A stretch of DNA of 64,000 nucleotides, taken from positions 204,816 to 268,815 of the forward strand of contig DFRJ01000002.1 in assembly GCA_002378195.1 (NCBI GenBank), given 5' to 3'. The stretch's first letter is position 1. The number at the start of each line of letters is the position of its first letter. Positions 3,019 to 49,536 of the stretch are shown one piece after another. Origin of the DNA: Patescibacteria group bacterium UBA3466 (GTDB taxonomy: Bacteria; Patescibacteriota; Minisyncoccia; Phycocordibacterales; UBA918). Below the pieces are notes generated by a model. The model ran no database searches and was not told the DNA's origin. It saw nothing but the letters and a program-made list of their open reading frames with translations. Made by a program: the position numbers and the translations under genes.

Positions 3019-4137
3019 TCACGCAGACTTTCTAAAAGTGCGGTATTTTGACACATTTAGCACAATGCCCAGTGAAGCCAGGGTTGATAATAGCGCCGTA
3101 CCACCATGGCTAATAAACGGTAGTGGCAAGCCCGACAGTGGTGCGATCGCCAGCATGGCTCCGATGTTTAAAAAGGCCTGAGCGATGATTATGGTCATAA
3201 ATCCAATTACTAGTAGTGTGCCAAAAATGTCCTTGGCTTGTGAGGCCGTACGGTAGCCTCTAAGGGTTAAAAATACCATTGAAAATATAAGTGTCACAGA
3301 ACCAATAAAACCAAACTCTTCTGCGTAAACGGCAAAAATTGAGTCGCTAGTTGGCTCGGGTAAATATTCAAATTTTTGGATACTCTGTCCAAAACCTCTT
3401 CCGGCAATTCCGCCAGATCCAACCGCAATTAAGGATTGGTGGATTTGATAGCCGCTACCTAACGGATCGGCGTCGGGATCTAAAAAAGTGAGCATGCGGT
3501 CCATGATGTATGGTCGTAGCATTGCTACAGTGGCAATCAGTAATACTCCGGCAATTATGATGAATCCAATGTCACGCCAGCGGGCGCCAGCTACCAGAAA
3601 CATCGACATACCGGCAAAGGCCATGATCATAAAGGTGTCGGTGTCTGGTTGTAGTAACATTACAAAGCCTACTATGCCAGTGATGACAGCAAAAGGAATA
3701 AGGCCGTGTCGCCAATGACTGACTTTGCCGTGCGTACCAGACAGCCAGGTGGCTAAATAAATAACAAAACCAATTTTTAATAATTCTGATGGTTGTATAG
3801 TGGTAATCCCTAAGTCTAGCCAACGAGTTGCACCAGCATGGGTCATACCGATGCCGGGTACGAAGACGGCCAGTGTAAGAAGCAACGATCCAACGAAAAT
3901 ATAAAAGGCGTACTTTCTCCAGTGACGGTAGTATACGTTCGATAGTAAAAGCAAAGCAGCTCCGCCACCGACAATACCAAACATTAATTGACTTAGAGCC
4001 TCAGCTCCAAAACTAGCTCCGTCTCTAGCCATTAATCCAAGAGAGGCTGAAGAGAAAATTAAAAAACCGCCTGCCACCATCAGCCCGATTAGAGCAAGTA
4101 GGATCCCGTCAACAGATTTTGGTTTCTGGTAACTCAT
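3019..4137 (-). CDS. ftsW: FtsW/RodA (SEDS family) peptidoglycan polymerase.
   Basis: A polytopic membrane protein of about 10 TM helices sitting between mraY and murG, as in dcw clusters. Its ATG overlaps the mraY stop (ATGA). Confidence 0.82.
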   Translation of the reverse strand: MSYQKPKSVDGILLALIGLMVAGGFLIFSSASLGLMARDGASFGAEALSQLMFGIVGGGAALLLLSNVYYRHWRKYAFYIFVGSLLLTLAVFVPGIGMTHAGATRWLDLGITTIQPSELLKIGFVIYLATWLSGTHGKVSHWRHGLIPFAVITGIVGFVMLLQPDTDTFMIMAFAGMSMFLVAGARWRDIGFIIIAGVLLIATVAMLRPYIMDRMLTFLDPDADPLGSGYQIHQSLIAVGSGGIAGRGFGQSIQKFEYLPEPTSDSIFAVYAEEFGFIGSVTLIFSMVFLTLRGYRTASQAKDIFGTLLVIGFMTIIIAQAFLNIGAMLAIAPLSGLPLPFISHGGTALLSTLASLGIVLNVSKYRTFRKSA

Positions 4138-11467: not shown

Positions 11468-11803
11468 TTAGTGTAGAATGCATACTTTGATGTGCGGGTA
11501 CATATCATCCGGCACTTGTATCTCATCGGGGTCATAAGCCGCCGATCGTCCGTCAGATACGGCGGTCAATTCGACTCTTGCCAACACTTCAGCTGGCAGT
11601 CGGCGCTGCATGATATCGATGAAGCTGTTGATGTGACAGTCTTCAGTGCAGCACTGAGCCGAGTCTTCCTTTGGTTGAAACCGAAAGGTTTCAAGCTTCG
11701 GGCCCTCTCGCCCAGGCTGTACAATTTCGTAGTGAGTGTCACCGCCGATTTTGTAAATCAAGGCTTTCAACTCCGCTACAAATGGAACGATTTCTCTTTG
11801 CAC
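11468..11803 (-). CDS. Hypothetical protein (111 aa).
   Basis: Protein-like composition, CCTEDCH cysteines, and its own downstream terminator. The overlapping plus-strand ORF 11492..11833 has an R/S/L-rich antisense-like composition. Confidence 0.45.
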   Translation of the reverse strand: MQREIVPFVAELKALIYKIGGDTHYEIVQPGREGPKLETFRFQPKEDSAQCCTEDCHINSFIDIMQRRLPAEVLARVELTAVSDGRSAAYDPDEIQVPDDMYPHIKVCILH

Positions 11804-11909: not shown

Positions 11910-12239
11910 TTACAGCACTTTAATTCGCAAGGACCGCTCGTGTTGCCTAACACTCACTCCCCCCGCCAGACCCTGACGCTCGATCAGGTCCTTCACCGAC
12001 TCGGATATATGTTTAAGGTCATGGTTTGACATGGCACTACCATCTCGATCCATCGGTAGTACGGTAAAGTGACGGTCTGTATCGCTGTGTACGATGTCCG
12101 CTGTCTTACCTTCTACTCGACAAATGTCCTTGATAGTTTGCTTCAGGTTTTGTGCCAGATTGACCGGCTTAGTTGATTCAGGGGTGGTCAGCAATCTTGG
12201 CGACCGGCGCCTTTCCTTCATGAGGTGTACAACTCCCAT
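11910..12239 (-). CDS. Hypothetical protein (about 109 aa).
   Basis: The start was chosen at the Met preceded by GGAGA. The track's longer N-terminus (to 12299) would abut trpS. No recognisable motifs were found. Confidence 0.4.
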   Translation of the reverse strand: MGVVHLMKERRRSPRLLTTPESTKPVNLAQNLKQTIKDICRVEGKTADIVHSDTDRHFTVLPMDRDGSAMSNHDLKHISESVKDLIERQGLAGGVSVRQHERSLRIKVL

Positions 12240-12301
12240 ACATTTCTCCAATGTTATTTTGGGACACTCGAATAATACTGAATATATGAAAAGTGTCAAT
12301 C

Positions 12302-13285: not shown

Positions 13286-14977
13286 CTACATGGCCAGCGG
13301 TAGTTCTAGTGTGAAGCGTGAGCCTTTCCCTTCTCCTTCCGAGTGTGCAGTTATTTCACCACCCATTCCGATAGCCATTTTCTGGGCTACAAATAAGCCG
13401 AGACCAGTACCGTGAATGTTGACGCTATTGGCATTGTGAGCTCGTTCAAACTTACCAAATACAGTGTCTAAGGACTGTTGGTTCATACCGATACCTGTGT
13501 CTTCAATATCTACAAAGATGCGCTTCTTAACTACGTCATCACGAACCAAGACTTTAATACTGCCAGTTGGAGTGTACTTGATCGAGTTATTAATAAGGTT
13601 TTGGATAATTTGAATCACCTTTCCAATGTCCGCACAGACTACACCAGTGCTCTTTAGGTCGGAGCGGAACATCATGCTGAGCCCCTTCTTGAGAGCCTGT
13701 GGTCGGAGGTCATCAGAAATCTTCTCTGCTTCGTCCTTGAGGTTGAAGTCAGCGTTGTTGTATTTCATGTTGCCTGACTCGATGCGGGATACGTTGAGAT
13801 AGTCTTCAATTGAGTACGCCATATTCTTTGACGATTCAGATATACGCTCAATCGCCTCCTCTGCTTTTGGCGGCATTTTTCCGTAGCTTCCGTCAGCTAG
13901 CAGTGACGCATAACCTCTGATAGCGGTTAGCGGGCTGCGCAGTTGGTGGGACGCTATCGACACAAACTCCGACTTGAGCTTGTCCAACTCCTTAAGCCGC
14001 TCGTTTGCGTTAGCTAACTGTGCAGTTAATTTTTCAAGCTCCGATCTTTGTTCTATCTCTTTTCTTACTGATCGAATTAAAAATATTCCAGCTAGAGCTG
14101 TTAGCACCAGAGTGATGGAGGTGAGCACAAGAGTTGTTAATTCCCCGTTTGTGTAGGTGAACTGAGCTGCAATTAAGAGGACCAATGTTAGGACCAGGGC
14201 TTCAGCAGCGTGGGCGCCGACATTAAAGGTCTTAAATCTAACTATTAGTACACCCATCATGACCATAAAGATTGTCATCCCGAAGAATCCATATAGCTCC
14301 AACCTTGAATCTTCTACAAAATGAATTGTTGCAAGGAAGTCTGCTAGATAGAAAATTGTGAAAAATAGCACTAAGAAAGCTTGCACACCTATGCCCATGT
14401 ACACTATTTGCTTTTTAAATACTGAATCTGCGCGAGTTTTATAGTACTTAGATAAAAGCATCCAGGTGTTCCATATAATGGCAACGAGTCCTAAAAGACT
14501 ATAGTATGCGTTGTATAAGGCACCCTCAAAGTCAAAGGCGTTGCACCAGTCTATGTCAAAGCCGCTTAGATTCAGATTTGTAGGCGCCAGCAAGAAGGTT
14601 GGCAAGAGTAGTAGTGTAAATATTACCTTCATTCTGCCCGGGATGTCTTTTTTGTGTATGAATACGTATATGAAATATATACACAAGATAGAGACTAATG
14701 CCTGTAATGGTCCGAATAATGACCATACAAAAATCATGATGTCACTACGGTTGTTTGTCCAAGTAATTAAATTAAATACGGCAATTAGTGAGAAGCTTAA
14801 TGCTATAAAAAATAGAATTCTGTTTAATAGATTACTTGGATTATTTGAAAAAACAAAAATTCCCACTAGCAGAGATAAGGCGATGGCTGGCAAGTGGGCA
14901 TAATATAAGAGATCTGGTATCCAGTCTGCTTGGATAAAAAAGAAAAAACTTGGAGTTTCGGATCCGTAACAAATCAT
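13286..14977 (-). CDS. Sensor histidine kinase with about 7 N-terminal TM helices, a HisKA H-box and a HATPase_c domain. No response regulator is nearby.
   Basis: SHQLRSPLTAIRGYASLL (H-box) and GTGLGLFVAQKMAIGMGGEI (G2 box). Confidence 0.85.
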   Translation of the reverse strand: MICYGSETPSFFFFIQADWIPDLLYYAHLPAIALSLLVGIFVFSNNPSNLLNRILFFIALSFSLIAVFNLITWTNNRSDIMIFVWSLFGPLQALVSILCIYFIYVFIHKKDIPGRMKVIFTLLLLPTFLLAPTNLNLSGFDIDWCNAFDFEGALYNAYYSLLGLVAIIWNTWMLLSKYYKTRADSVFKKQIVYMGIGVQAFLVLFFTIFYLADFLATIHFVEDSRLELYGFFGMTIFMVMMGVLIVRFKTFNVGAHAAEALVLTLVLLIAAQFTYTNGELTTLVLTSITLVLTALAGIFLIRSVRKEIEQRSELEKLTAQLANANERLKELDKLKSEFVSIASHQLRSPLTAIRGYASLLADGSYGKMPPKAEEAIERISESSKNMAYSIEDYLNVSRIESGNMKYNNADFNLKDEAEKISDDLRPQALKKGLSMMFRSDLKSTGVVCADIGKVIQIIQNLINNSIKYTPTGSIKVLVRDDVVKKRIFVDIEDTGIGMNQQSLDTVFGKFERAHNANSVNIHGTGLGLFVAQKMAIGMGGEITAHSEGEGKGSRFTLELPLAM

Positions 14978-15357
14978 GATGTTATATCGTTAGTACATTC
15001 ATCTTCTGATGATGTTGCATCGCAGTAATCAATGGTGCACGACGGGTCATCAGGTTGGCATTCAAAAGCTGCGTCGCAGCTATAAACATCACGACCACAT
15101 AAATCGTATAGATAATCAGCCTGCCTTGTAATAATTGAGTAGTAGTAAGTAGACTCGCAAGCATCAGCCTCCTCTTCATCGTCGCAGCCAATATAACAAC
15201 TTTGTACCTCGCTATCGCAGTCGCCGGCATAGGATACCTGGTAATCATGTAGTACCATAAATCGATAATAGGATGATCCAACTACTAAGAGTATAAGAAC
15301 TGAATTTATTAGTAAGAGAAAATTGCCTCTAACTAACTTTTTCAATAACGGAGCCAT
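14974..15357 (-). CDS. Small membrane-anchored, Cys-rich (10 Cys) acidic protein, translationally coupled to the histidine kinase.
   Basis: An N-terminal TM helix, then DCDSEVQSCYIGCDDEEEADACE...SCDAAFECQPDDPSCTIDYCDATSSEDEC. Its stop overlaps the HK ATG (ATGA). Confidence 0.55.
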   Translation of the reverse strand: MAPLLKKLVRGNFLLLINSVLILLVVGSSYYRFMVLHDYQVSYAGDCDSEVQSCYIGCDDEEEADACESTYYYSIITRQADYLYDLCGRDVYSCDAAFECQPDDPSCTIDYCDATSSEDECTNDITS

Positions 15358-17232: not shown

Positions 17233-17631
17233 ATGTTAGATATTTTCATACGAACCATTTCGGATAAAGACCAAAGATATGACACTGTAGGAGATTATCA
17301 GACTGACGAATGTGGTAAGCAGGTTATTTCGGTGTCTGATTTGAATAATGATAATTTTGAGTTTCTCATAGCCCTTCATGAATTAATTGAAAGTAAATTG
17401 TGTAAAGAAAGAGGAATTACTGATTCTCAAATTGATAAGTTTGATATAGATTACGAATCTAATAGAGAGGATGGAGACCAAGAATCTGAACCGGGAGATC
17501 AGCCTGACGCGCCTTATCACAAAGAGCACGTGTTTGCTTCTAGGATTGAAAAAATGATGGCAGATGAACTAGGTGTTGATTGGGAAAAATACAGTAAGGC
17601 TTGCTCAGAACTTACAGGTTCTTCTAATTAA
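17233..17631 (+). CDS. Hypothetical acidic protein (132 aa).
   Basis: A plus-strand gene divergent from 16334..17161, with a TACAAT -10 box 10 nt upstream and no SD (leaderless-like). It has an acidic low-complexity C-terminal half. Confidence 0.5.
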   Translation: MLDIFIRTISDKDQRYDTVGDYQTDECGKQVISVSDLNNDNFEFLIALHELIESKLCKERGITDSQIDKFDIDYESNREDGDQESEPGDQPDAPYHKEHVFASRIEKMMADELGVDWEKYSKACSELTGSSN

Positions 17632-18109
17632 GATACAGCAAGACCAGTGGGGCTAATAGCCACCAGAAGAAATATTCAGCGGGGGCAAAGAGTGATTGGA
17701 TCGGGGTGCCGGGGCTTAGGAACTCGGTGACTGGTAGGACGTGAAAACTAAATGTCATCACCAGAACTGTTACACCCAGTGCTAATAGTGACTTCTTGCC
17801 AAAAGATTCAAATTTATTTTCGCTGAATTCATCGGGCATGATTCTGGAAAAAAGCTTCGTGGCGAAAAAGGCTATGAAAATAAAAAATGCCATTTTTGCC
17901 ATTGCTACCTGCCCCGAATCTGCAAGGGTACCGAAGACTTTGTCGTAGTACGGAAATTCGATTGAAATAAGCAGAGCCAGGTAAAGTCCGCAGATAATAT
18001 TGATGACCGCCTGCCTACCCTTAAAAATGGCTATGGCAAGAGTCACGCCAAAGACTAAAAGCAAATATGCGATTTCAATGAGGAAGTCCAAAATAAACGC
18101 CCAGTTCAT
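17624..18109 (-). CDS. CvpA-like (colicin V production family) 4-TM membrane protein, putative.
   Basis: Size (161 aa) and TM topology resemble CvpA. This is a weak sequence-only call. Confidence 0.45.
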   Translation of the reverse strand: MNWAFILDFLIEIAYLLLVFGVTLAIAIFKGRQAVINIICGLYLALLISIEFPYYDKVFGTLADSGQVAMAKMAFFIFIAFFATKLFSRIMPDEFSENKFESFGKKSLLALGVTVLVMTFSFHVLPVTEFLSPGTPIQSLFAPAEYFFWWLLAPLVLLYLN

Positions 18110-18466: not shown

Positions 18467-18892
18467 TTATTCTGTGTAAAAATTATGCACGGCCGATGTG
18501 GTGGCGTCCTGCACGTGTCTAAATCTATCTCCCATGAGTTTCACTCCCCCAAACCAACGAGTGACACAAATCACACAGTCAACCACTTCTTGCTTTTGCA
18601 TCACTCGCAGAATAACCATACCGGCTCCAGTTTCACCGTCATCTGCTTTAGTTTCATAAATTGCGCCGTCTCTTTCGATACGTGCTGCCCAAGTATTGTG
18701 AGTAGCTTTGGCGTATTTTTTGTCTTTCTTAAGTCGCGTCAGGAAATCCTTTATTTCCTGACGCGACTTAACGTAACCATAGCTGACTGAATATTTACTA
18801 CCTCTATCTATAATTATATTTTCTAACAGGACAAAATCTTCTCGAGGTATTTTGTTGTCTTCAAAATTAAATCTGGTTGATTGAGTGGGCAT
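18467..18892 (-). CDS. yigZ: YigZ/IMPACT-family protein.
   Basis: RGSKYSVSYGYV...ATHNTWAAR...DDGETGAGMVILRVM...TRWFGGVKLG are IMPACT N-domain signatures. Confidence 0.8.
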   Translation of the reverse strand: MPTQSTRFNFEDNKIPREDFVLLENIIIDRGSKYSVSYGYVKSRQEIKDFLTRLKKDKKYAKATHNTWAARIERDGAIYETKADDGETGAGMVILRVMQKQEVVDCVICVTRWFGGVKLMGDRFRHVQDATTSAVHNFYTE

Positions 18893-18894
18893 GA

Positions 18895-19953
18895 TTAGAT
18901 GCCCTCATCTCTTAATTCTTCAATTATTTTTTTAGCTTTGCGTGATAGTTTTTTTGGAGTTTCGATAGAAATTTTGACCATAAAGTCACCACGTGAATTG
19001 TTGTATGGTACTCCTTTACCTTTGATACGTAGAAGTTCGCCGTGAGCAATGCCAGCAGGGATTTTGATATCAACTTTTCCATCTAGTGTCTCGACGTTGT
19101 ACGTGCCACCAAGGAGCGCATCGGTTAGTTTGATAGATAGATTTGCAGTCAGAGTGGTGCCATCGCGTTTAATGTTCGCATGGTGCTCAACATGTACTTT
19201 AATGTACATGTCACCCGGTTGTCCGTGCGGTATCGCTTCCCCTCTTCCCGTCATGCGGATTACTTCCCCATTCTGGATGCCGGCAGGAACTTTGATTACG
19301 ACCTCCTCCTCAGATCTTGTGACACCATTACCTGAACACTCGCTACATTTTTCCTCTGGTACTGTACCCAGGCCATGACAGGCATCACATTCACGTACGG
19401 TTGTGAAGGCTCCCATGATGCTTTGACGTTGTTCTCGCACCTTCCCCTGTCCGCCACAAACATCACAAGACTTAGTGTTGGTCCCCAGTTTAGCGCCTTT
19501 TCCGTCGCAGGTCTTACAACTGTTGTTCTTAGTGATGAGGAGTTTTCGTTCCACTCCAAAAATCGATTCTTCAAATGATAGATTGATGTCAATAGAGACA
19601 TCACGTCCACGTTTTGTTTGCTGTCCACCACCACCAAAGCCGAAGTTAGAAAAGATATCGTTAATATCGAATTCGAATCCTTGACCGTTGAAACCTTGTG
19701 CTCCGTTAAAGTCAAAACCACCAAAGCCGCCTCCGGCCGCACCATTAAACGACTGGCCGTAGGTGTCATATTCTGCCTTCTTTTTATCATCTCCTAGAAC
19801 AGCGTAGGCTTCAGTTACTTCCTTGTATTTTTCTTCGTCACCAGTTGCTTTGTCTGGGTGGTATTTTGAAGCCATTTTTCGAAAAGCTTTTTTCACCTCG
19901 TCTTTGTTAGCTCCTTTTTCGATTCCTAGTATTTGGTAGTAGTCTTTTGACAT
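18895..19953 (-). CDS. dnaJ: Chaperone DnaJ.
   Basis: A J-domain (YYQILGI...HPDK), a G/F region, and 4x CxxCxGxG zinc fingers. Confidence 0.95.
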   Translation of the reverse strand: MSKDYYQILGIEKGANKDEVKKAFRKMASKYHPDKATGDEEKYKEVTEAYAVLGDDKKKAEYDTYGQSFNGAAGGGFGGFDFNGAQGFNGQGFEFDINDIFSNFGFGGGGQQTKRGRDVSIDINLSFEESIFGVERKLLITKNNSCKTCDGKGAKLGTNTKSCDVCGGQGKVREQRQSIMGAFTTVRECDACHGLGTVPEEKCSECSGNGVTRSEEEVVIKVPAGIQNGEVIRMTGRGEAIPHGQPGDMYIKVHVEHHANIKRDGTTLTANLSIKLTDALLGGTYNVETLDGKVDIKIPAGIAHGELLRIKGKGVPYNNSRGDFMVKISIETPKKLSRKAKKIIEELRDEGI

Positions 19954-20067
19954 ATCGTTACTTTGTTTACGAGTGGCTTGTGTTGAAAGTCAGAGAGTAG
20001 CGACTATGCACGGGAGGGTTTGGCTGGGGCGTGCAAGGAGCGTACGATTCGACTTTTAACCAAGGTA

Positions 20068-20120
20068 CTCACTATAACTCTTACGAGCTTTATAGTGAGC
20101 AGAACTTGTTCTGCTCACTA
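20068..20120. promoter_or_regulatory. Nested palindromes between dnaK and dnaJ, CIRCE-like in architecture. They may be an operator or an RNA stem.
   Basis: A perfect 13-bp inverted repeat TAGTGAGCAGAAC-tt-GTTCTGCTCACTA (20093-20120) plus CTCACTATA...TATAGTGAG (20068-20099). No T-run follows on either strand. Confidence 0.5.
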
Positions 20121-20128
20121 AAAGTTCA

Positions 20129-22048
20129 TTAGTCTTTTTTCTCTTCGTCCTTGTTCACTTCTTCAGCATCACGCACCACTGGCTCTTCAGCAGCACTTTC
20201 TCCTCCTTCTGCTGGAGTGTCACCAGCATTCTTTTGTGCTTCTTCAGCTGCCTTTTGCATAATTTCACCAATCTTCTGCAGGGATGCGGTAAGTTCTTCT
20301 ACTGCTTTAGCCAAAGCTTCCTTATCTTCTTTGTCCTTGACTTCGTTCACTGCTTTAATTTTGTCTTCGATTTCTTTCTTCACATCTTCAGGTACCTCCT
20401 TTTCGTGATCTTTGAGTGCTTTTTCTGCTGTGTACACCATTTGCTCAGCGTTGTTACGCGCGTCAATCATTTCCTTTTTCTTTTCGTCTTCAGCTGCATG
20501 TTCCTCGGCGTCCTTCTTCATCTTTTCGATATCGTCGTCAGTGAGTCCAGAGTTGGCTTCAATGCGAATTGATTGCTCTTTGCCTGTAGATTTGTCTTTG
20601 GCTGTTACGTTCAGTACACCGTTTGAGTCTACGTCAAAAGTCACTTCTACCTGTGGCACACCGCGTGGAGCTGGAGGAATTCCATCGAGTACAAAGCGAC
20701 CGAGCGACTTATTGTCTGTCGACATTGGTCGTTCACCTTGAGTGATGTGGATCTCAGTAGAGGTTTGGTTGTCAGCAGCCGTTGAGAAAACCTGCGACTT
20801 CTTGGTTGGAATGTGGGTGTTTTTCTCAATGAGTTTAGTTGCTACGCCTCCCATTGTTTCGATACCAAGAGAAAGAGGGATTACATCAACAAGAGTAATG
20901 TCTTGCACATCCCCTTGGAAGATACCAGCTTGAATTGCCGCACCGTTTGCTACCACTTCATCTGGATTGATGCTGCGGTTTGGATCCTTACCAAATAGCT
21001 CCTTCACGGCTGCTTGTACTGCTGGCATTCTGGTCTGACCACCAACTAGGATAATTTCATCAATCTCATCTTTATTGAATGATGAAGCCTCTAAAGCACG
21101 TTTTGTAATTTCGATTGATTTGTCGATATATTCGTGAGCAATTTCTTCCAGTTTGGCTCGGGTGAGCGTTACGTCCATGTGGAGCGGTCCATCGCTGCCT
21201 TGAGAAATGAACGGAATGTTTATGTTGGTTTCCGTAGTTGAAGACAGTTCCAGCTTCGCTTTTTCTGCTTCGTCATCGAGACGCTGTAGAGCCAGCTTGT
21301 CCTTACTTAGGTCGACACCATTTGAGCTCTTAAATTCATCAATTAAAAACTTAACGATGCCCCGGTCGATGTCTCGACCACCCATGTGCGAGTCGCCGTC
21401 AGTAGATTGTACTTCCACCACGTCATCTCCCACCTCAAGTACGGTTACGTCGAAGGTTCCCCCTCCGAAGTCGTATACTACGATCTTCTCGTCTTTTTTC
21501 TTATTGAATCCGTAGGCCAGAGCAGCAGCAGTTGGTTCGTTGATGATTCGTTTCACCTCCAGACCGGCAATCTTTCCAGCGTCTTGAGTAGCTTTTCGTT
21601 GTGAGTCATTGAAGTAGGCTGGCACGGTAATAACTGCTTCGGTAATGGTTTCGCCCAGCTTTGCTTCAGCGTCAGCCTTAAGCTTTGAGAGAATCATTGC
21701 TGACACTTCTTCTGGTCGATAGTCTTTGTCTCCCATAGTGACAACAGCACCACCGTCTTCTCCCTTCTTGATCTCGTAAGGGACGATGTCTTTATCTTTT
21801 TGTACTACGTCGTCTTCGTAGTTGTGACCCATAAAACGCTTAATACCGTAAATGGTATTAGTTGGATTGGTTACACTCTGTCGCTTGGCAATCTGCCCCA
21901 CAAGACGTTCATTGGTCTTTGAGATTGCAACAATAGAAGGAGTCGTTCGAGTTCCTTCGCTGTTTTCTATAATAGTAGGTTCACCCGCTTCAATTACAGC
22001 CATGGCTGAGTTGGTGGTACCTAAGTCAATTCCTAAAATTTTTCCCAT
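20129..22048 (-). CDS. dnaK: Chaperone DnaK (Hsp70).
   Basis: [21 protein letters not shown], and an acidic C-terminal tail. Confidence 0.97.
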
Positions 22049-22064
22049 ATGTACTAAATATCAA

Positions 22065-22667
22065 TTATTCCTTTACAATTCCAGTAGTTACCTTGGCCGG
22101 TCGAATCAATTCTGTCTTGTCTCCAACATTCATCTCGTATCCATTTTGTACTACAGAGATTACTACGTCTTGCTTCTTCTTATCTTCCACTTCTTCCGTA
22201 CCAACAGCTTCGTGTCGCATGGGGTCGAATGTTTCTCCCTCTGCATTGATAACTGATACCTCGTAAGAATCAATAATCCGCATCAGTTGCATATTGATAC
22301 CCTCTACTCCCTTTCGCCATGATTCCGGTGCCTGTTCCCAGGCGTCTTTGTCCTTCATAGCCATCTGGAAGCTGTCACAAAGCGGTAACAATTCTTCTAC
22401 GTGCTGTATTCTTTGGCGTACTCTGTCTCGCACCTTCTCTTCTTCTAGTCGTTTTCTGGCATTGAGAAAGTCTGCCTTAGCTCTTTGTGACTCGTCGAGA
22501 ATCTCCTTCTTCTCGTCATTACACCTTGCTAACTTTTCACGTAGTTTCTTGAGCTTATCAGAGCTCATTTCTTCTTCCTCTTCTAGTTCAGTTTCTTCAA
22601 TTTCAACATTCTCGTCGTTGGTGATTTCCATCTCCAATTCGTCATTTTCATTGTTCATATTCACCAT
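22065..22667 (-). CDS. grpE: GrpE nucleotide exchange factor. The start is revised to MVNMNNEND...
   Basis: A GrpE coiled-coil and C-terminal domain. The 24 tracked N-terminal codons contain the perfect promoter TTGACA-17-TATAAT, so the real start is the ATG 9 nt after the -10 box. Confidence 0.82.
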   Translation of the reverse strand: MVNMNNENDELEMEITNDENVEIEETELEEEEEMSSDKLKKLREKLARCNDEKKEILDESQRAKADFLNARKRLEEEKVRDRVRQRIQHVEELLPLCDSFQMAMKDKDAWEQAPESWRKGVEGINMQLMRIIDSYEVSVINAEGETFDPMRHEAVGTEEVEDKKKQDVVISVVQNGYEMNVGDKTELIRPAKVTTGIVKE

Positions 22668-22676
22668 ACGGCCCGC

Positions 22677-22705
22677 ATTATAAAGCGAATAAACTTCTGT
22701 GTCAA
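22677..22705 (-). promoter_or_regulatory. Perfect consensus sigma70 promoter for grpE-dnaK-dnaJ (near-leaderless).
   Basis: Minus strand TTGACA (rc of 22700-22705), a 17-nt spacer, then TATAAT (rc of 22677-22682). The ATG is at 22665-22667. Confidence 0.7.
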
Positions 22706-22736
22706 AAGAAAAGCCCTGAAGGGAGCCTGACAAACG

Positions 22737-22766
22737 CAAAAGCCAGTCACTGAGTGACTGGCTTTT
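22737..22766. terminator. Hairpin GCCAGTCAC-tgag-GTGACTGGC flanked by A and T runs (a terminator after rpsI and/or an operator upstream of the grpE promoter).
   Basis: A 9-bp GC-rich stem. On the minus strand it is followed by TTTTG. It lies about 30 nt upstream of the -35 box. Confidence 0.6.
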
Positions 22767-22868
22767 GTTCCACTGTGTTGCGAGTGGTAATTATTTACTT
22801 GGTTTCCACGTTGGCCTGCAAAATTTTCTAGGTAAGGAAAATTTTGATCGGCCATCGCTTCGCGAACC

Positions 22869-22898
22869 GAGTAAACGGTAAACATTTACCGTTTACTC
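22869..22898. repeat. Perfect 13-bp palindrome spanning the rpsI stop codon.
   Basis: GAGTAAACGGTAA-acat-TTACCGTTTACTC. Confidence 0.5.
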
Positions 22899-23290
22899 CA
22901 TGCTGGTCGCTTTCGTGCCTTTCGTAGACCGAATTTCTTTCGTTCAACTGATCGCGGATCTCGTTTGAGGAATCCGAGAAGCTTCAGTGGGCTTCGTCGC
23001 TCAGCCTTTTCTTTTACTAGCGCTCGGGCAATACCCAGTCGGATAGCTTCAGCTTGTGAAGAGATACCGCCTCCAACTACCTTGGCAGTAATCATGTAGT
23101 GTTCGATCCCTGCGTCGGGTGTATCTAGTACAGACTGTACATCCTTTTGGTGTGACAGGTTTCCAAAGTATTCAGCAAGTGGCTTGCCGTTTACTGTGAT
23201 TTCTGTTTTTGCTGCTGGAGTAAGTCGTACTCGAGCGGTAGAAGTTTTTCGTCGTCCGATCCCTTCTACGTAAGTGTCTTTTGCTGCCAT
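22886..23290 (-). CDS. rpsI: Ribosomal protein S9.
   Basis: C-terminal GGGISSQAEAIRLGIARAL...RDPRSVERKKFGLRKARKRPAWSKR. Confidence 0.95.
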   Translation of the reverse strand: MAAKDTYVEGIGRRKTSTARVRLTPAAKTEITVNGKPLAEYFGNLSHQKDVQSVLDTPDAGIEHYMITAKVVGGGISSQAEAIRLGIARALVKEKAERRSPLKLLGFLKRDPRSVERKKFGLRKARKRPAWSKR

Positions 23291-33140: not shown

Positions 33141-34457
33141 CTAATTATTTCCCTTAAAGTACCCAATAGTCAGATTGCTTTCTACAAAAAGTTTGCTAAG
33201 TAGTTGCAGTATTTGCTTAGTGGAGATTTGCTTGAGAATGTTCGGTGTCTCTTCGTATCTTTCCCAGTGTCCTGATGCAACGTACTCGGTTAGTTCCTGA
33301 CAAATTTTCAGTGAGTGTTGTCTTGAGAAAAGTTCTTGGGTGAGAATCTGTTCCTTACTCTTTTTTATCAAGTTATCAATGGTTGATTTATCCAGTGCTG
33401 AAATAGCATGTAATACTAAACTCTCAATCTCTTCGTGTTCTTGACCCTTAGCTAAGTTGATGGATATCATACCCAGGTTTTCTTCCGAAGTCGGCTCGAT
33501 GGCGCCTGAAACACTCGATGCCTTACCAGTATCTACTAGTAATTTGTGCAGCAGGCTTTCGGCGCCGCCGGTTAATACATCCAGCATAATAGTTGTTGCA
33601 AACCACTCTTGTGAAGGGAATCCGGAATGCTTGAAGCCAATAGCCAGCAGATTTGTGGTTGACGGTCTGGTGATTGTGACGCGTCTCAGTCCCTCTTGTT
33701 TTGGCTCTCTGATTGAGAAGCGTGGAATGGCGGTCTTTGGACTACTAATGCCACTGAAATGCTTCTTCACCGCTTTTAGCGCAGTGTCTCGATCAATGTC
33801 ACCTACGACCATCATTACGGCATTGTCTGGTCGGTAATAATCTCTATAAAATTTCTCCAGTTTAGCTGGTGTATAGTCCTCAATGTCTTCACGATAACCA
33901 ATTGTTTCGTGTCCGTATGGATGAGAGTGGTAGGCCGTACTCACCATTTGTACGCTTAGTGCAAAATCAGGGTCTCCGTTGTACATATCGAACTCACTCA
34001 AAACATTACCTCGTTCAGGATTAAGCTCTTTGTCGTTAAGGATTACGCCGGTCATCCTTTCAGCTTCAATTTGCAATGCCTCATCTAGCATATCTGTTGG
34101 GTAGCTAAAATAATATGTAGTTCGATCCTTCCAGGTATTGGCATTAAGTACGCTTCCAGTATTTCTCTCAAAATTCATGCTCCAGCTGTCAGTTAAACCC
34201 CGAGCACGGTCAAAGTTGGTGGGTTTAAAAAGCATGTGCTCAAGCATGTGAGCAACTCCAGTTTCGCCTCTCGCTTCATCGCGAGCACCAACTAAGTAGG
34301 TGATGTTTGAAGTAACCACCCCAGTTTCTGGACGATTATAAAAGAGTACTCGAAGACCGTTTCTTCTCAGTCGGTATTCTTCAATACCAGATACGGTCTT
34401 TATATATTCATAACCAGCAAGTTGGGTTTTAGCTTGGTTCGCTGTTCTTTTCTTGGA
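33141..34457 (-). CDS. M16 family zinc peptidase, catalytic subunit.
   Basis: An inverted zinc motif HMLEH(x)n E: GETGVAHMLEHMLFK. The start is the MSKKRT Met, with a 29-nt overlap with the upstream HD gene. Confidence 0.8.
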   Translation of the reverse strand, partial: SKKRTANQAKTQLAGYEYIKTVSGIEEYRLRRNGLRVLFYNRPETGVVTSNITYLVGARDEARGETGVAHMLEHMLFKPTNFDRARGLTDSWSMNFERNTGSVLNANTWKDRTTYYFSYPTDMLDEALQIEAERMTGVILNDKELNPERGNVLSEFDMYNGDPDFALSVQMVSTAYHSHPYGHETIGYREDIEDYTPAKLEKFYRDYYRPDNAVMMVVGDIDRDTALKAVKKHFSGISSPKTAIPRFSIREPKQEGLRRVTITRPSTTNLLAIGFKHSGFPSQEWFATTIMLDVLTGGAESLLHKLLVDTGKASSVSGAIEPTSEENLGMISINLAKGQEHEEIESLVLHAISALDKSTIDNLIKKSKEQILTQELFSRQHSLKICQELTEYVASGHWERYEETPNILKQISTKQILQLLSKLFVESNLTIGYFKGNN

Positions 34458-35025
34458 CATCAAAAATGAAATTCTTAAACTCTTCAAAGGTCTGATTAAA
34501 TTCGTGCACAATACCATCTGACAACCGACTATTTATTGCGTTAGCTATGTTTTGATAGGCTTCGAGTTGATTTTCTAAGCTGTTGCCAAAATCCCTGAAG
34601 AAACCGTGGTGGTCATCGAAATAATCTTCAACTATACATCTAAAATTATGTGTCTTGTCGGCAGCCGACACCAAGACAGATTCTATCGGTGCTTTCTTAA
34701 GCTTCTTGGCGTAGTTTTGTTTAACTTGAAGCCAAGGGATCCGCTCGCCATTTTTGTACTCTTCTTCAGTGACGTGCTCTACAATGTTGGCTACGTTGTC
34801 ACCGAAATCAGTTTTAAGCTCCTCCAGTGTGTAATCGGTGTCTTCAATAGTGTCGTGAAGTAGCGCCGCAACGAGAGTGTCCTCATCTTCCGTATAATCG
34901 CGTAGAATCATGGTTACAGCCATTAAGTGAGTGATATAGGGTAGCGGAATGTCACCCTTACGCACTTGATCCTGATGCAATAGTGCGGCTGCTTTTATGG
35001 CTTGCTCTACTTTATAAGAGTACAT
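34429..35025 (-). CDS. HD-domain protein resembling the SpoT/Mesh1 (p)ppGpp-hydrolase domain (small alarmone hydrolase-like).
   Basis: ITHLMAVTMIL...TLVAALLHDTIEDT (the HD...HDxxED pattern of the RelA/SpoT HD domain). 198 aa. Confidence 0.6.
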   Translation of the reverse strand: MYSYKVEQAIKAAALLHQDQVRKGDIPLPYITHLMAVTMILRDYTEDEDTLVAALLHDTIEDTDYTLEELKTDFGDNVANIVEHVTEEEYKNGERIPWLQVKQNYAKKLKKAPIESVLVSAADKTHNFRCIVEDYFDDHHGFFRDFGNSLENQLEAYQNIANAINSRLSDGIVHEFNQTFEEFKNFIFDVQEKNSEPS

Positions 35026-35641: not shown

Positions 35642-36430
35642 TTACTTTTTGACGTTAGCAAAGTGTATCGCTTGCAACTTTTTGCCAGCCGCTTCTCTAT
35701 ATGGACAATACTCGCAATCTTCCCCACACGGCGGCAAGTCCTTTCTGTCTAGGCAGGTCTTAATTTCAATTAGAGTGTCTTCTATCCACTTGGTGTCTGC
35801 TACTACTGGCACTAGTGTCGTTTCAAACTGAAGCTGATTGTTAAACGCTTCAAGGTTCTTGTCAGCATTGGCGTAAACCAAGTAGCCAGTATCTTGAACT
35901 TTGAAACCATTTTTCTCTAAGAGCCAGCGGTACACACCAAGCTGTCGAGCGTATTGCTTTTCCCAGGGTGAGTCACCTAGCTTGTCTATCGTACCTTCCT
36001 TTGAGGTCGATTTATAGTCAACAATTATCAGCTCCCCTTCGCTATTGATCCAAATATCGTCCACTCCTCCGCTTACTACGAGCCCAGTCTCGGCGTGAGT
36101 GTGGGTTATACCAACAAACGGGTCGCGCCAGGTTTCTAGATCATGGTGAGCAAATGGTACGGCCTTGATTTCGTATTTATCCATTATCGGATGAGGAGTT
36201 TTGGTTGCTCGGTACTTATCAAATTCGTTCTTAAATAGCTCATCGACCGCAATATTCAAATTGAATGATGGGAAACCTGGTCGTTTAGTCCCTAGCACAT
36301 TGTCGAGGTAAAAACACCTTGGGCACTCAAAGAAATAGTCTATTTTTGATCGTGATAACTTCCACTTCTTGCCTTTGTAATTCCACTCGGCTGATCGATT
36401 GGGATTATATCTGTATCTATATTCTGCCAT
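35642..36430 (-). CDS. Cas4/RecB-like PD-(D/E)xK nuclease with a 4Fe-4S Cys cluster (stand-alone, no CRISPR).
   Basis: An N-terminal CPRC, motif II IVDYKS, a QxxxY (EKQYARQLGVY), and a C-terminal CGEDCEYC. Confidence 0.65.
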   Translation of the reverse strand: MAEYRYRYNPNRSAEWNYKGKKWKLSRSKIDYFFECPRCFYLDNVLGTKRPGFPSFNLNIAVDELFKNEFDKYRATKTPHPIMDKYEIKAVPFAHHDLETWRDPFVGITHTHAETGLVVSGGVDDIWINSEGELIIVDYKSTSKEGTIDKLGDSPWEKQYARQLGVYRWLLEKNGFKVQDTGYLVYANADKNLEAFNNQLQFETTLVPVVADTKWIEDTLIEIKTCLDRKDLPPCGEDCEYCPYREAAGKKLQAIHFANVKK

Positions 36431-37144: not shown

Positions 37145-37978
37145 TTATTTCTGACCGCAGAGCAATCTGGCTTCCTGCATCAAGGCTTCATGTTTTCGTT
37201 TTGGTAAATGTAAATGTCTAAGAACAGCCTCGTGCTCAAGAATGTCACGACACAAGATAATATCGCGAGCAATCAAGGTTTCTGCTTGCGAAGCCGATAA
37301 ATTTTGTAGAACTGTAACCGGGTAGACTCCAGCTCGCTGAATTTGGTCGTGCAGGTTATTGTTTTTGGGATAATCCCAGCTTAGCATTTTGAGGCCCACG
37401 CAACGGCCATAATCTTGCGCAGTACTTGTAAATTTTGTGTTTGTAATTAACCAAAACTCGCCTATGCCGCACACATCGGCATTACAGATTTTTTTATTTT
37501 TGAGATCCAAAAGTCTTGCATATGAATACATGGCCACTTGTAGATCAGATTTTATTCCCGGTCGAGCGTGAAATTTAGCTTCTCCGATGAAGCTGTGCTC
37601 TTCGTTGTAGGCGGCCAGGTCTATTTCGTGCGGAGCGCAGTTACCCTGAAGGGTGACGCCAGTCTTAGTTGTGTAGCCTTCTGCCTCGTACAATTTTGCT
37701 AAAAACTTTTCGAAAGGAAATCCAGTTGGTCCGAGATTAAATAGGGCTCGTCTTAGTGAGTAGCGAGCAGCAGCTGGTGGTCGGCTGTTCCGCAATAGCG
37801 AAAAGGCGTGACGATATATCTCCTGCGTTTGAACTCCGTCATATAAGGTCTTGTTAACCTCGGCAACTATTTCGTTGATTTCGTGCGGATCTGCTCCGGC
37901 GCGGCGTAGTGATCGTCTGAGTTTTTCAACTTTAAAGAACTCGGCTGTGCCATCAGCCTTGGTGATAGTTACTGACAT
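37145..37978 (-). CDS. ATP-cone domain fused to an Mrr-type (PD-(D/E)xK) restriction-endonuclease catalytic domain.
   Basis: An N-terminal ATP-cone (VTITKADGTAEFFKVEKLRRSLRRAG...EIVAEVNKTL). Mrr_cat-like HEIDLAAY...FIGEAKFH...FWLITNTKFTSTAQDYG. Its ATG overlaps the mnmA stop (TAATG). Confidence 0.6.
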   Translation of the reverse strand: MSVTITKADGTAEFFKVEKLRRSLRRAGADPHEINEIVAEVNKTLYDGVQTQEIYRHAFSLLRNSRPPAAARYSLRRALFNLGPTGFPFEKFLAKLYEAEGYTTKTGVTLQGNCAPHEIDLAAYNEEHSFIGEAKFHARPGIKSDLQVAMYSYARLLDLKNKKICNADVCGIGEFWLITNTKFTSTAQDYGRCVGLKMLSWDYPKNNNLHDQIQRAGVYPVTVLQNLSASQAETLIARDIILCRDILEHEAVLRHLHLPKRKHEALMQEARLLCGQK

Positions 37979-41446: not shown

Positions 41447-42472
41447 TTAGTCAGCTATAGCAAATGTTCCATTTGATAGCTTCTTGAAGAGATTGGTGTC
41501 CTGGAGGTTTACTAAGATGGTGTTGTCTTTGACGTAACGTTCCTTTCTTACCTTATCGATGATTTCTTCTCGTGAGAGAGGACCTTCGGTTTGGAGAATT
41601 TCTCGTAAAACATCTTTTACCACACCAGCTGTGTAACCCCATTCAGTTAGAGCGTACAATCCTCGGCCTACTAGTACGAATCGTTCGTCCTTGATCAGCT
41701 CGTTGTGAGTGGTGGCAACGTGGGCCTTGTGACCGAATAGCTCATTGATAGTTTCTGCTACTTCTCGGAAGTGCATTGGTGATCCGTGGCGCTTAACTGC
41801 TAGGTAAGCGTAGTCACGAATGCCCTTTACTCGGATGTTTGGGCTGTCAGCTGGGCCCCAGTCTCCTAGCGGATTTCGTCCAATTTCTTTTGAGATTGAA
41901 AGCCATCGCTTGAGTACTTCTTCGTTGTGAGCTTCTGCCATATCTGACAGCTCAGTTTTGAATCGGCTGATGATTTCACTCTCGCTGACTAGTTCGTCGC
42001 GACTTAGTCCTTTTCGTACATTTTTTAGCGCTTTTTCAACATTGTCTGCGACTCGTCGTTCAGTAAACCAACGGTGAGCATACTGCGGGTTCTCCTTGCT
42101 CTTGTAGAAAGGATCGCCGACCACTAGTAAGAAATATAGGTGGTTTCGGGTTGTTTCGTCTGTAGTAAGCTCGTCAAGTAGAACGTGCTCAGCGATGATA
42201 CCGCCGCCCAATTCATCAATAAGCTTTTGCAGCTCAATGAATAGCTCATAGTGCTTCTTGTAGACTTCAGACTTTTGGATAGATTGAATACCGTAGTTCT
42301 CAATTTGTCTTACACGCTCACGCGTAATTCCGTATGATTGCCCAATCGCTTCAAGTGTGAAAGATTCACCTTTAGCGTTTAGTCCGTAACGCTTTTCTAG
42401 TACGTCACGAGCTCGCTCTGGAAGTACATCTAACAGAGTCTTACTGATTTGTTTAGGTTTAAATGAAATCAT
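41447..42472 (-). CDS. DNA-binding protein with an N-terminal sigma-70 region-4-like HTH and a C-terminal HARE-HTH-like (RpoE-delta-like) winged helix.
   Basis: LPERARDVLEKRYGLNAKGESFTLEAIGQSYGITRERVRQIE (sigma r4 pattern). The C-terminus MHFREVAETINELF...ERFVLVGRGLYALTEWGY has the HARE-HTH pattern. Confidence 0.55.
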   Translation of the reverse strand: MISFKPKQISKTLLDVLPERARDVLEKRYGLNAKGESFTLEAIGQSYGITRERVRQIENYGIQSIQKSEVYKKHYELFIELQKLIDELGGGIIAEHVLLDELTTDETTRNHLYFLLVVGDPFYKSKENPQYAHRWFTERRVADNVEKALKNVRKGLSRDELVSESEIISRFKTELSDMAEAHNEEVLKRWLSISKEIGRNPLGDWGPADSPNIRVKGIRDYAYLAVKRHGSPMHFREVAETINELFGHKAHVATTHNELIKDERFVLVGRGLYALTEWGYTAGVVKDVLREILQTEGPLSREEIIDKVRKERYVKDNTILVNLQDTNLFKKLSNGTFAIAD

Positions 42473-46648: not shown

Positions 46649-47749
46649 CTAAGAGTGCATGAATTCAATAACGTCTCCGTCTTGTACCACATACTCCTTC
46701 CCTTCTGTTCTCAACTTACCAGCATCACGAGCCGCCGCTTGCGAACCTGCTTCGACTAGGTCATTAAAAGCAACCACCTGAGCCCGGATGTACTTATCTT
46801 TAAAATCTGTATGAATAGCCGCGCCAGCTTCTGGCCCAGTGCTGCCGATTTTGACTGTCCAAGCGCGTGTCTCCTTTTCACCAGTAGTAAAGTAGCTCAT
46901 TAAGCCGAGTCTGGTATAGCAGGCTCTAATCAAGGCACTGACTCCGCTGTCCTGCGCCCCGTACTCCCTTCTAAATTCATTCTTTTCGTCCTCGTTTAGA
47001 TCCTTCAATTCGTGCTCCATTCCAGCATCGACAATGACGTACTCAGAACCAGTGTCCTTGAAGAATTGCAACAATTCTTGCCACCGTTCATCATTGTGTT
47101 CGTCTAGATTGAAGGAATTTTGCTTTTTGTTACAGACATACAGGAACTGCTTCATGGTCAAAAGGTGTAGGTGCTTTATCACCTTCTCTTCTTCCTCTGT
47201 CATACCTAGCTTGTTGGCTAGATGTCCAGCCTGCAGATGTTCTAGGAGTCTCGTCAGCAATTCTTTTTCCGCCACGGCACCCTTGTCGCCCCGTTTTATA
47301 TCCTTTTCTATGTTTGAAACTCGCTTACTAACAGTCTCAGCGTCGGCCATGATTAGCTCTAGGTTGATGGTTTCAATATCACCCATCGGATCAACTCCAC
47401 CAGACACATGGTGAATGTCGCTGTCCTCGAAGATGCGCACCACTTCAGCGATCATGTCGGTCTCTCTAATATTGGCGAGAAACTTATTTCCTAAGCCTTC
47501 ACCAGCCGAAGCTCCTTTCACCAACCCGGCAATATCTACAAATTCAATTGCAGCCGGAATAATCTCTGAAGAACCAGAGATGTCACTTAATGTTTGAAGA
47601 CGTGAGTCAGGCACTGGCACCACACCCACCGCTGGATCGATTGTCGCAAATGGGTAATTAGCAATCAGCACTTCGTTATTAGTAAGGGCTGTAAAGAGGG
47701 TTGATTTTCCAACGTTGGGCAACCCAACAATTCCGACAGATAATGACAT
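46649..47749 (-). CDS. ychF: Ribosome-binding ATPase YchF (Obg-like ATPase).
   Basis: A G1 motif [14 protein letters not shown] and a C-terminal TGS domain. Confidence 0.9.
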
Positions 47750-49467: not shown

Positions 49468-49536
49468 AATCGCCTCCTTCGGCAATTGTTGATTGTGAAC
49501 TATGGACTTGACTTAGTGTCCAGATCTTCATTTTCT

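Follow-up and report, generated by a model that had tools for sequence, protein, structure and literature searches.

A class-wide consensus promoter and a candidate start-codon-occluding RNA helix at the grpE-dnaK operon of Paceibacteria

Introduction

The grpE-dnaK-dnaJ chaperone operon examined here lies on the minus strand of a 64,000-nucleotide (nt) stretch of the genome of Patescibacteria group bacterium UBA3466 (contig DFRJ01000002.1, positions 204,816 to 268,815), which is hereafter called the window and numbered from its first letter. The locus combines a consensus promoter beside the grpE start codon, a predicted leader of 0–2 nt, and a conserved RNA helix that is predicted to occlude the start codon. 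The HrcA-CIRCE operons of Firmicutes and many other phyla share its grpE-dnaK-dnaJ order and housekeeping-sigma promoter; however, no CIRCE was found in the window or at 57 grpE promoters, and no hrcA gene stood beside the operon. In E. coli rrnB P1-type promoters, a GC-rich discriminator follows TATAAT. The grpE promoters were similar in that TATAAT was followed by a GCGCC-like sequence with a predicted start 8–9 nt downstream, and their discriminators were 60% GC. On the other hand, no sign of ppGpp or initiating-nucleotide (NTP) control was seen at grpE, and the window held only an HD_4 hydrolase-like gene in this respect. The GeneMarkS-2 “group C” leaderless pattern, described for Actinobacteria and Deinococcus (Lomsadze et al. 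2018, PMC6028130), places a Pribnow box 6–8 nt from the start codon of operon-first genes without a Shine-Dalgarno (SD) sequence, and this geometry recurred throughout the window. The present case differs in that the host belongs to the Paceibacteria of the candidate phyla radiation (CPR) and that the internal genes of its operons also lack SD sequences. In addition, grpE has a full -35 element and a 17-nt spacer, whereas the other promoters here rely mainly on a -10 or TGn-extended -10 element, and the gap of 8–9 nt in most relatives predicts a leader of 2 nt rather than zero.

The thermosensor of the E. coli rpoH mRNA, reportedly described by Morita and co-workers in 1999, is said to form by pairing of the start region with the message's own coding segment, so that the amount of message is constant and translation is released by heat. 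The grpE locus resembles rpoH in being a heat-shock gene whose start region pairs within its own coding sequence. However, the rpoH message carries an ordinary leader and a structure exceeding 200 nt, whereas grpE has one helix of 8 base pairs (bp) that closes a loop of about 36 nt right at the 5' terminus; furthermore, grpE belongs to a chaperone operon and is not a sigma factor gene, and thermosensing at grpE is hypothetical. The thermometers of 5' untranslated regions (UTRs), such as ROSE, fourU, and Synechocystis hsp17, likewise occlude the initiation site of a heat-shock gene, using a short helix made imperfect by a bulge and G.U pairs. These elements mask an SD sequence in the UTR, whereas grpE has neither a UTR nor an SD sequence, the 3' arm of its helix is coding, and the helix matches no Rfam family. 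The 5'-terminal stabiliser stem-loops of E. coli ompA and B. subtilis aprE have long leaders and leave the ribosome site free. Like them, the grpE helix begins at or 1–2 nt from the 5' end, but it holds the start codon itself. The new element is the conserved helix predicted to occlude the start codon, as leaderless mRNA and thermometer or stabiliser hairpins are already known.

Much of bacterial diversity belongs to the CPR bacteria (Patescibacteria), nearly all of which are uncultured and whose regulatory repertoires are minimal. The grpE locus bears on SD-less translation start and on stress-gene control in these organisms.

Results and Discussion

A consensus promoter beside the grpE start codon

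Loci encoding GrpE relatives of 37–71% identity were fetched from genomes (57 loci) and metagenomes (80 loci); the homologues were from Candidatus Kaiserbacteria, Nomurabacteria, and Paceibacteria, all CPR bacteria. Promoter counts refer to a genome set of 57 sequences (the window and 56 loci) and a metagenome set of 71 distinct loci, within the class Paceibacteria. A promoter scan and a pattern search located TTGACA-17 nt-TATAAT, which matches the consensus at 12/12 positions, at 22705..22677 on the minus strand. Its parts were as follows.

22700..22705, minus strand: -35 hexamer TTGACA; 52/57 genome sequences and all 71 metagenome loci have TTGACA, TTTACA, or TTGACT
22683..22699, minus strand: 17-nt spacer; this length was kept by all 52 conserved members of the genome set, the window among them, and by 69/71 metagenome loci
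22677..22682, minus strand: -10 hexamer TATAAT; exact in 50/57 genome sequences
22670..22676, minus strand: GC-rich discriminator GCGGGCC, placed right after the -10 hexamer

The -10 element ended at 22677 and was followed by gcgggccgt (9 nt, 22676-22668) and by the ATG at 22667-22665, as described in the initial annotation. No other match was present in the window even with 1 mismatch allowed (0.54 matches are expected by chance at up to 1 mismatch), and by our own estimate the chance of an exact 12/12 match in the window was about 0.01. At least 10/12 positions matched in 52/57 sequences of the genome set, 34 of which were perfect, and at least 11/12 matched in all 71 distinct metagenome loci; pooled, 123/128 sequences contained the same promoter 6–10 nt from the grpE ATG. 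The gap between the -10 element and the ATG in the 52 genome-set promoters was 9 nt (n = 21), 8 nt (n = 19), 6 nt (n = 7), 7 nt (n = 3), or 10 nt (n = 2). A total of 70 near-consensus promoters (at least 11/12) were found in 646 kb of the relatives' DNA, and 51 of these were those of grpE; the other promoters of these genomes had poor -35 elements and relied mainly on a -10 or TGn-extended -10 element. A position matrix indicated that the grpE promoters have in common a spacer T-tract at about -22 to -18, ATT directly before the -10 element, and GC directly after it. The T-tract was absent from other promoters of the same genomes, and TT immediately 5' of the -35 element was conserved in about 80% of the relatives. 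The mean GC content of the stretch from the -10 element to the ATG was 0.60 in the 52 grpE promoters and 0.34 in 146 other -10-proximal starts (Mann-Whitney p = 2e-11). By these comparisons, the promoter is of the sigma70/sigmaA type in sequence, is conserved class-wide in Paceibacteria, and is not a product of chance. The locus offers a concrete example, found across the class, in which a consensus promoter directly adjoins a start codon.

A second grpE-type promoter (TTGATA-17-TATAAT with gtagaaagtATGGTGAATATGAAA) was observed at about 3965-4025 (plus strand) of the Nomurabacteria locus L003, roughly 2 kb upstream of the real grpE. It was considered as a functional unit together with its ATGGTGAATATGAAA copy and rejected, as it opens no long open reading frame (ORF) and looks like a relic of rearrangement. 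A small HD_4 (RelA/SpoT-hydrolase-like) protein, encoded at 34429-35025 (minus strand), may bear on the GC-rich discriminator.

Extent of GrpE and the region upstream of the operon

The whole locus was located on the minus strand in the order rpoA, rplQ, rplM, rpsI, grpE, dnaK, and dnaJ. The features that frame the promoter are listed below.

22886..23290, minus strand: rpsI (ribosomal protein S9), an ORF; the final gene in the rpoA-rplQ-rplM-rpsI series that precedes grpE
22730..22767, minus strand: intrinsic terminator of the rplM-rpsI transcript, AAAAGCCAGTCAC-TCA-GTGACTGGCTTTT followed by TTTTGCGTTTG
22065..22667, minus strand: grpE coding sequence, 200 amino acids (aa), starting MVNMNNEND; delimited by homologue lengths, alignment, and upstream stops
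20129..22048, minus strand: dnaK, an ORF that begins 16 nt past the grpE stop without an SD sequence
18895..19953, minus strand: dnaJ, from the ORF and tblastn synteny

Gaps of 146 nt and 175 nt separate rpsI from the longest grpE ORF and dnaK from dnaJ, respectively. The order rpoA-rplQ-rplM-rpsI-(0–3 kb)-grpE-dnaK-dnaJ was retained in most relatives, as determined by tblastn.

The longest grpE ORF (22065..22739) has a TTG start, encodes 224 aa, and reads through the promoter, and GrpE could accordingly be a 224-aa TTG-initiated protein that is transcribed by read-through from rpsI, with the promoter-like stretch serving as coding sequence. The frame is open from 22739, and alignment showed that a few database GrpE entries bear N-terminal extensions with a shared motif, FDT...(I/L)YNAxRMV. 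However, this motif is simply TTGACA and TATAAT read as codons. The promoter hexamers were kept although their distance from the ATG took every value from 6 to 10 nt, which covers all three reading frames; at a distance of 8 nt, the TAA of TATAAT falls in frame with grpE, and 41/51 relatives had an in-frame stop no more than 75 nt upstream of the ATG. A public protein that is 100% identical (P0001) has 200 aa, most homologues have 197–204 aa, and the terminator sits between rpsI and the ORF. Because the hexamers are conserved in every frame and in-frame stops occur upstream, the extension is non-coding and GrpE has 200 aa, the 224-aa reading being merely the longest ORF; a 224-aa protein is thus extremely improbable. 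The initial annotation had also favored 200 aa over 224. The 224-aa ORF that it described does exist, but not as the annotated gene, since the public annotation already gives 200 aa. Longest-ORF gene calls in such genomes can therefore swallow promoters, and an N-terminal extension that looks “conserved” can consist of translated promoter hexamers.

A second reading of the upstream region, put forward in the initial annotation, takes the GC-rich hairpin in front of the promoter as a non-canonical operator at which a heat-shock repressor would act, and links it to the palindrome between dnaK and dnaJ through a common AGTGA/TCACT core. The spacer between rpsI and grpE was strongly structured (fold z = -6.8). 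The hairpin core, GCCAGTCAC-TGA-GTGACTGGC, was located at 22742-22762; its full arms (22737-22751 and 22753-22767) form a perfect inverted repeat of 15-nt arms that are 100% complementary with a 1-nt gap (a 13-bp stem and 3-nt loop as written), and this repeat, together with the absence of a canonical operator, is what speaks for repressor binding. However, the hairpin lies 119 nt past the stop of rpsI, the last ribosomal protein gene, and 36 nt upstream of the -35 element, with an A-tract before it and a T-run (TTTTGCGTTTG) after it. In about half of 50 relatives, a hairpin with A/T-tract arms and a dG of at most -10 kcal/mol lay immediately before the -35 element, and the stems were unrelated in sequence, whereas an operator would conserve sequence and not structure alone. 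GCCAGTCAC was found nowhere else in the window, and searches for the arms GCCAGTCAC, GTAAACGGTAA, and AGTGAGCAGAAC yielded no meaningful repeats elsewhere in it. The palindrome between dnaK and dnaJ belongs to a separate positional class of hairpins that follow the dnaK stop in 31/48 relatives, and the shared 5-mer AGTGA is expected by chance and carries no weight. Because the hairpin and T-run are kept in place while the stem sequences are unrelated, the hairpin is an intrinsic terminator of the ribosomal protein transcript, and the operator is very unlikely.

The same annotation had reported neither CIRCE nor HAIR at the promoter and no hrcA nearby, and this was borne out. CIRCE (TTAGCACTC-N9-GAGTGCTAA) gave 0 matches in the window at up to 3 mismatches, and 646 kb of relatives' DNA, including 57 dnaK operons, contained one 4-mismatch match, far from grpE. 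None of the 57 grpE promoters carried CIRCE, HAIR, or a CtsR box. HAIR (CTTGAGT-N7-ACTCAAG) and CtsR searches returned only loose matches, all within coding sequence such as rpsI, and the HAIR-like matches were rejected as operators, having proved to be conserved rpsI coding sequence. Pfam scans detected no HrcA, HspR, or CtsR among the approximately 56 ORFs of the window. In the relatives, hrcA was never adjacent to grpE, the upstream neighbor being rpsI or variable inserts, and a literature search found nothing specific on HrcA in CPR bacteria.

Predicted transcription start and leaderless geometry

RNA polymerase selects a purine flanked by pyrimidines, located 4–10 nt (usually 7–8 nt) after the -10 element, as the start (Kuo et al. 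2025, PMC12641261). Relatives with a gap of 6–7 nt had a pyrimidine-A-T triplet centered on the A of the ATG, and those with a gap of 8–9 nt had a conserved CGT, with its G at position 7–8 and two bases before the ATG. By this rule the start is predicted as follows.

22669, minus strand: predicted transcription start, the G of CGT, 8 nt after the -10 element; alternative at A22667

The transcript would therefore begin at G22669 as 5'-GUAUGGUG or at A22667, with a leader of 2 or 0 nt. No SD-like motif was found upstream of grpE, and a -10 element within 6–10 nt of the ATG in all relatives leaves no room for a ribosome-binding site. The grpE message is thus predicted to be leaderless or near-leaderless, in line with what had been proposed and with a geometry strongly backed by conservation in relatives; because the leader is 0–2 nt, it would need 5'-end-dependent (leaderless-type) initiation.

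The idea that this trait singles out grpE was not supported. SD sequences were almost absent from the 60 nt upstream of long ORFs in the window, including the ribosomal protein genes, rpoA, dnaK, and dnaJ, and an SD-like 4-mer occurred at -20 to -4 in 10/56 window genes against 5.1 expected by chance; the internal operon genes also lacked SD sequences. Six of the 31 exact TATAAT hexamers in the window sat 6–9 nt before the ATG of a long ORF. With grpE left out, the pooled loci contained 58 -10-like hexamers at a gap of 6 nt, compared with a background of 13 +/- 5. Many operon-first genes had a -10 element (often TGnTAnnnT) ending 6–9 nt before the ATG; examples of such starts were found at 17624-18109, 37145-37978, 35642-36430, 14974-15357, 47807-48646, 55546-56067, and 58563-59519 (minus strand) and at 17233-17631 (plus strand). 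A -10 box beside the ATG is therefore a common arrangement in such a genome, and leaderless-type starts appear to be its default. What is special to grpE is the perfect promoter, the GC-rich discriminator, and the conserved RNA helix described below. The anti-SD motif is missing from about half of Parcubacteria (Tsurumaki et al. 2022, PMC9297842), and Campbellbacteria and Wolfebacteria are “SD-scarce” (PMC10783764); the scarcity of SD sequences and the pile-up of -10 boxes in the window fit these reports and the group C pattern (PMC6028130). A search of the literature on leaderless mRNA or its initiation in CPR bacteria or Parcubacteria found nothing specific.

An exception was a putative lipoprotein gene at 49467-49564 (minus strand; true ATG at about 49467, MKKSFKILRM...LVTGC), which had a consensus TTGACA-16-TGTATAAT promoter and a leader of about 60 nt; a perfect AAGGAGG precedes its ATG by 5 nt. 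A promoter and GGAGG in a similar arrangement were present in four relatives (L003, L004, L014, and L026; minus-strand matches), and some SD-dependent initiation may persist. A 129-aa ORF without a Pfam match (11910-12299, minus strand) opens with a near-consensus TTGACA-16-TATTAT; it may be spurious, and the promoter could belong to the gene downstream of it (11468-11803), which has AAGGAG in front. The YchF GTPase encoded at 46649-47749 (minus strand) may bear on leaderless translation, as YchF reportedly regulates the translation of leaderless mRNA in E. coli (cited in PMC12641178). A 341-aa protein (41447-42472, minus strand) had an unusual architecture, with an N-terminal sigma-70 region 4 and a HARE-HTH domain; sigma region 2 was not detected in it.

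A conserved helix at the predicted 5' end

The 5' end of the predicted grpE message can pair with a segment of the grpE coding sequence through the following arms.

22661..22669, minus strand: helix 5' arm, GU[A bulge]UGGUGA, containing the start codon and the GTG second codon
22617..22624, minus strand: helix 3' arm, UCACCAAC, codons 15–17 Ile-Thr-Asn (ATC ACC AAC), nt +44 to +51

The arms GU[A]UGGUGA and UCACCAAC form 8 bp with the A of AUG bulged and a loop of about 36 nt. RNAfold paired UGGUGA (nt 2–7) with UCACCA at about +44 to +52 in most loci, so that the helix covers the U and G of AUG; in one clade, in which the 3' arm is encoded by two His codons (the His-His clade), it covers all three bases. 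In an Rfam search, the window reached the gathering score only for two tRNAs, and a permissive scan of 19900-22950 returned only chance matches of miRNA hairpins to terminator hairpins.

Both arms were under synonymous constraint. The N-terminus MVN was nearly invariant, and Val2 was encoded by GTG in 39/39 genome sequences and 94/95 pooled sequences; GTG is used less than any other Val codon in the rest of grpE, and an ATGGTG start occurred in 0/145 other -10-proximal genes. Among 96 conserved GrpE columns, Val2 was the top outlier (p = 1e-26) and Thr16 the second (p = 1e-10), the next best being 1e-6. Thr16 (residue 40 of the 224-aa ORF) was encoded by ACC in 33/41 sequences, and the codon before it (Ile, Val, Thr, or Leu) always ended in C, and in TC for Ile, Val, and Leu. 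TCACC or CACCA was present at nt 31–70 in 88/94 sequences with GTG and in 2/20 without it (Fisher 6e-14), and synonymous resampling gave an expected presence of 17% for the given protein sequences. Close relatives without GTG kept Ile-Thr with relaxed codons, namely ATT ACT (L008, L011) and ACG (L131).

Matched changes in the two arms were observed in several lineages. L132 and L134 carried a double change, in which 5' UGAUGA is accompanied by 3' UCAUCG and UCAUCA, respectively (Val2 to Met and Thr to Ile). These loci are not mutual nearest relatives, as L132 is 81% identical to L040 and L134 is 73% identical to L121, with 66% identity between L132 and L134. The distant L118 had UGAUGG with UCAUCG, a compensatory change from G-C to A-U as in L132 and L134, and L122 had UGGUUA with UGACCA, a compensatory change from G-C to U.G. 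In the His-His clade, the codons of the old site were relaxed, and CACCAT, the full complement of AUGGUG, appeared as the two His codons 12–15 nt further along in another frame.

The register with the A bulged was supported by the bases before the start codon, as U(-1) and G(-2) could pair with the two bases past UCACCA in 22/23 loci with a gap of at least 8 nt and in 4/10 loci with a gap of 6–7 nt (p = 0.001), where the -1 and -2 bases should not be transcribed. Pairing of the -1 and -2 bases without a bulge was rejected (0/26), and the A1-bulged register proposed by RNAfold fits. Covariation was assessed in a structure-blind MAFFT alignment of 114 distinct sequences with 500 shuffles. Helix cells paired in 84.8% of cases compared with 81.5 +/- 0.4 in the shuffles (reached by 0/500), and registers slid along the alignment paired in 22–61%; double-change cells numbered 22 compared with 9.4 +/- 2.9 in the shuffles (reached by 0/500). 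U.G and G.U pairs were common in the helix, which is sensible only for sense-strand RNA, and the arm spacing ranged over 33–48 nt. The median probability that nt 1–6 are unpaired was 0.32 for grpE and 0.64 for other -10-proximal genes (p = 4e-14), and 0.55 for grpE without GTG. Because of the synonymous conservation, co-occurrence, compensatory changes, arm relocation, and tolerance of G.U pairs, the pairing appears to be under selection, and comparison of the relatives supports a 5' helix that occludes the start codon. This specific and mutable 8-bp helix is a candidate regulator of leaderless-type initiation.

A use of GGUGA as an SD-like site for a downstream ATG at codon 4 was rejected, as codon 4 is not conserved as Met. 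In L053 (6040-6080, plus strand), a distant Kaiserbacteria relative, grpE starts with AUGGAGGAA, and CCCUCC (at about +27) and a second GGAGG (at about +35) lie downstream; here the 5' end may be occluded in a different way, by alternative pairing.

Possible control of the operon and alternative explanations

The best overall explanation, which we regard as probable, joins the terminator, the class-wide consensus promoter at the ATG, the leader of 0–2 nt, and the 5' helix with control after transcription. A very strong, essentially constitutive promoter would supply abundant grpE-dnaK(-dnaJ) message, and the marginal 5' helix would restrict how readily ribosomes and 5'-end-dependent RNases reach the 5'-terminal start codon. 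Control would then act after transcription, and output would most plausibly rise when heat melts the helix, which would replace the absent repressor and operator. The SD-less dnaK, 16 nt downstream, would probably be read by ribosomes that continue from grpE. The helix itself may act as a thermosensor, as a 5'-end stabiliser, or as both. A narrower proposal, which is tentative and rather doubtful, is that grpE-dnaK of Paceibacteria is controlled without any transcription factor, by a constitutive promoter and a helix that serves as a leaderless RNA thermometer and gates dnaK via translational coupling. If true, this would be the first thermometer for a leaderless message as far as the literature searched shows, and a class-wide heat-shock switch of CPR bacteria.

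Several observations weigh against this explanation. As a single sequence, the helix was marginal (-8.3 kcal/mol, z = -1.5), with 13/200 shuffles folding equally well. RNAalifold gave no consensus structure for 18 5' regions, a small set that contained no double changes, and the double-change signal emerged only with 114 sequences. A longest-helix test against synonymous resampling with G.U allowed was not significant (P about 0.5) and was replaced by the per-column synonymous-conservation and motif tests. Most of the support for the helix is plain sequence conservation, and kinship among the sequences makes the shuffle controls overstate significance. The co-change N7Y/I15T of the MVY clade (given also as Asn3 to Tyr with Ile to Thr) was non-compensatory, and six GTG loci, for example L024, lacked the 3' motif. 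The nearest-neighbor model kept the helix formed from 10 to 50 C, the probability that the AUG bases are unpaired rising from about 0.2 to 0.3–0.45. Furthermore, the transcription start and the GrpE N-terminus are both predictions for uncultured organisms, and hrcA or another regulator could lie outside the 64-kb window.

Some of these points would suit an explanation in which ATGGTGA and TCACCA are conserved without any RNA pairing, the former as an initial-transcribed or promoter-escape sequence and the latter through an unrelated constraint on Ile-Thr, or both as protein-binding sites in DNA. Consensus promoters are limited by escape, so the early transcribed bases could face selection; in addition, the core helix positions are mostly invariant, classical covariation is sparse, and the single-sequence fold is not significant. 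However, this explanation leaves unaccounted the complementarity of the arms, their joint gain and loss (88/94 versus 2/20), the matched G-to-A and C-to-U changes in three lineages, and the return of the complement, now in another frame, as CACCAT. A DNA inverted-repeat operator formed by the two arms was rejected for its variable spacing (33–48 nt) and its strand-specific, sense-only G.U tolerance. Conservation without pairing is thus unlikely. If the helix is real, it could still be a 5'-end stabiliser that blocks the 5'-3' exonuclease RNase J or the removal of pyrophosphate, with expression constitutive and high. The helix begins directly at the predicted 5' end, with G(-2) paired in 22/23 loci with gaps of at least 8 nt, a placement shared with known 5' stabilisers; RNase J is retained in CPR bacteria (PMC12641178), little melting was modelled between 10 and 50 C, and a perfect consensus promoter suggests maximal constitutive expression. 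On the other hand, a leaderless-type message with its 5'-terminal start codon buried should be translated less well, the 5' ends of other -10-proximal genes of these genomes are predicted to stay accessible, and a bulged A with frequent terminal G.U pairs is typical of helices tuned for lability. A stabiliser with constitutive expression is therefore possible but uncertain, and a stabilising role and the thermosensing role favored above are mutually compatible.

Other hairpins of the locus

Three further hairpins were recorded in the spacers on either side of grpE-dnaK.

22706..22728, minus strand: second, weaker terminator-like hairpin, stem 22728..22711, tail TTCTTTTGAC
22869..22898, minus strand: 14-bp perfect hairpin straddling the rpsI stop codon, GAGTAAACGGTAAA/TTTACCGTTTACTC, from an inverted-repeat search and fold
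20090..20123, minus strand: strong hairpin 2 nt past the dnaK stop, without a U-run, TAGTGAGCAGAAC/GTTCTGCTCACTA, z = -5.1

The T-run of the weaker hairpin (TTTTCTTTT) abuts the -35 element of grpE and gives it a T-rich, UP-like upstream flank. The spacer between rpsI and grpE also contained a perfect inverted repeat, CAAAATTTTC-N8-GAAAATTTTG, at 22819-22846 (minus strand). Neither this pair nor GAGTAAACGGTAAA/TTTACCGTTTACTC recurred elsewhere in the window. The 3' arm of the hairpin after dnaK (CTCACTATAA) can instead pair with TTATAGTGAG (20068-20077), 12 nt downstream, and the two pairings are mutually exclusive. The 31 of 48 relatives with a hairpin of this class had it within 90 nt of the dnaK stop at -10 kcal/mol or below, often with GTGAG...CTCAC at its base, and in several relatives a TGn-extended -10 element near the dnaJ ATG followed the post-dnaK hairpin. 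Downstream of the operon, a perfect inverted repeat of 19 nt (TTAAGTCGCGTCAGGAAAT/ATTTCCTGACGCGACTTAA), interrupted by a gap of 5 nt, was located at 18729-18771, inside the UPF0029 (YigZ/IMPACT-like) ORF at 18467-18892.

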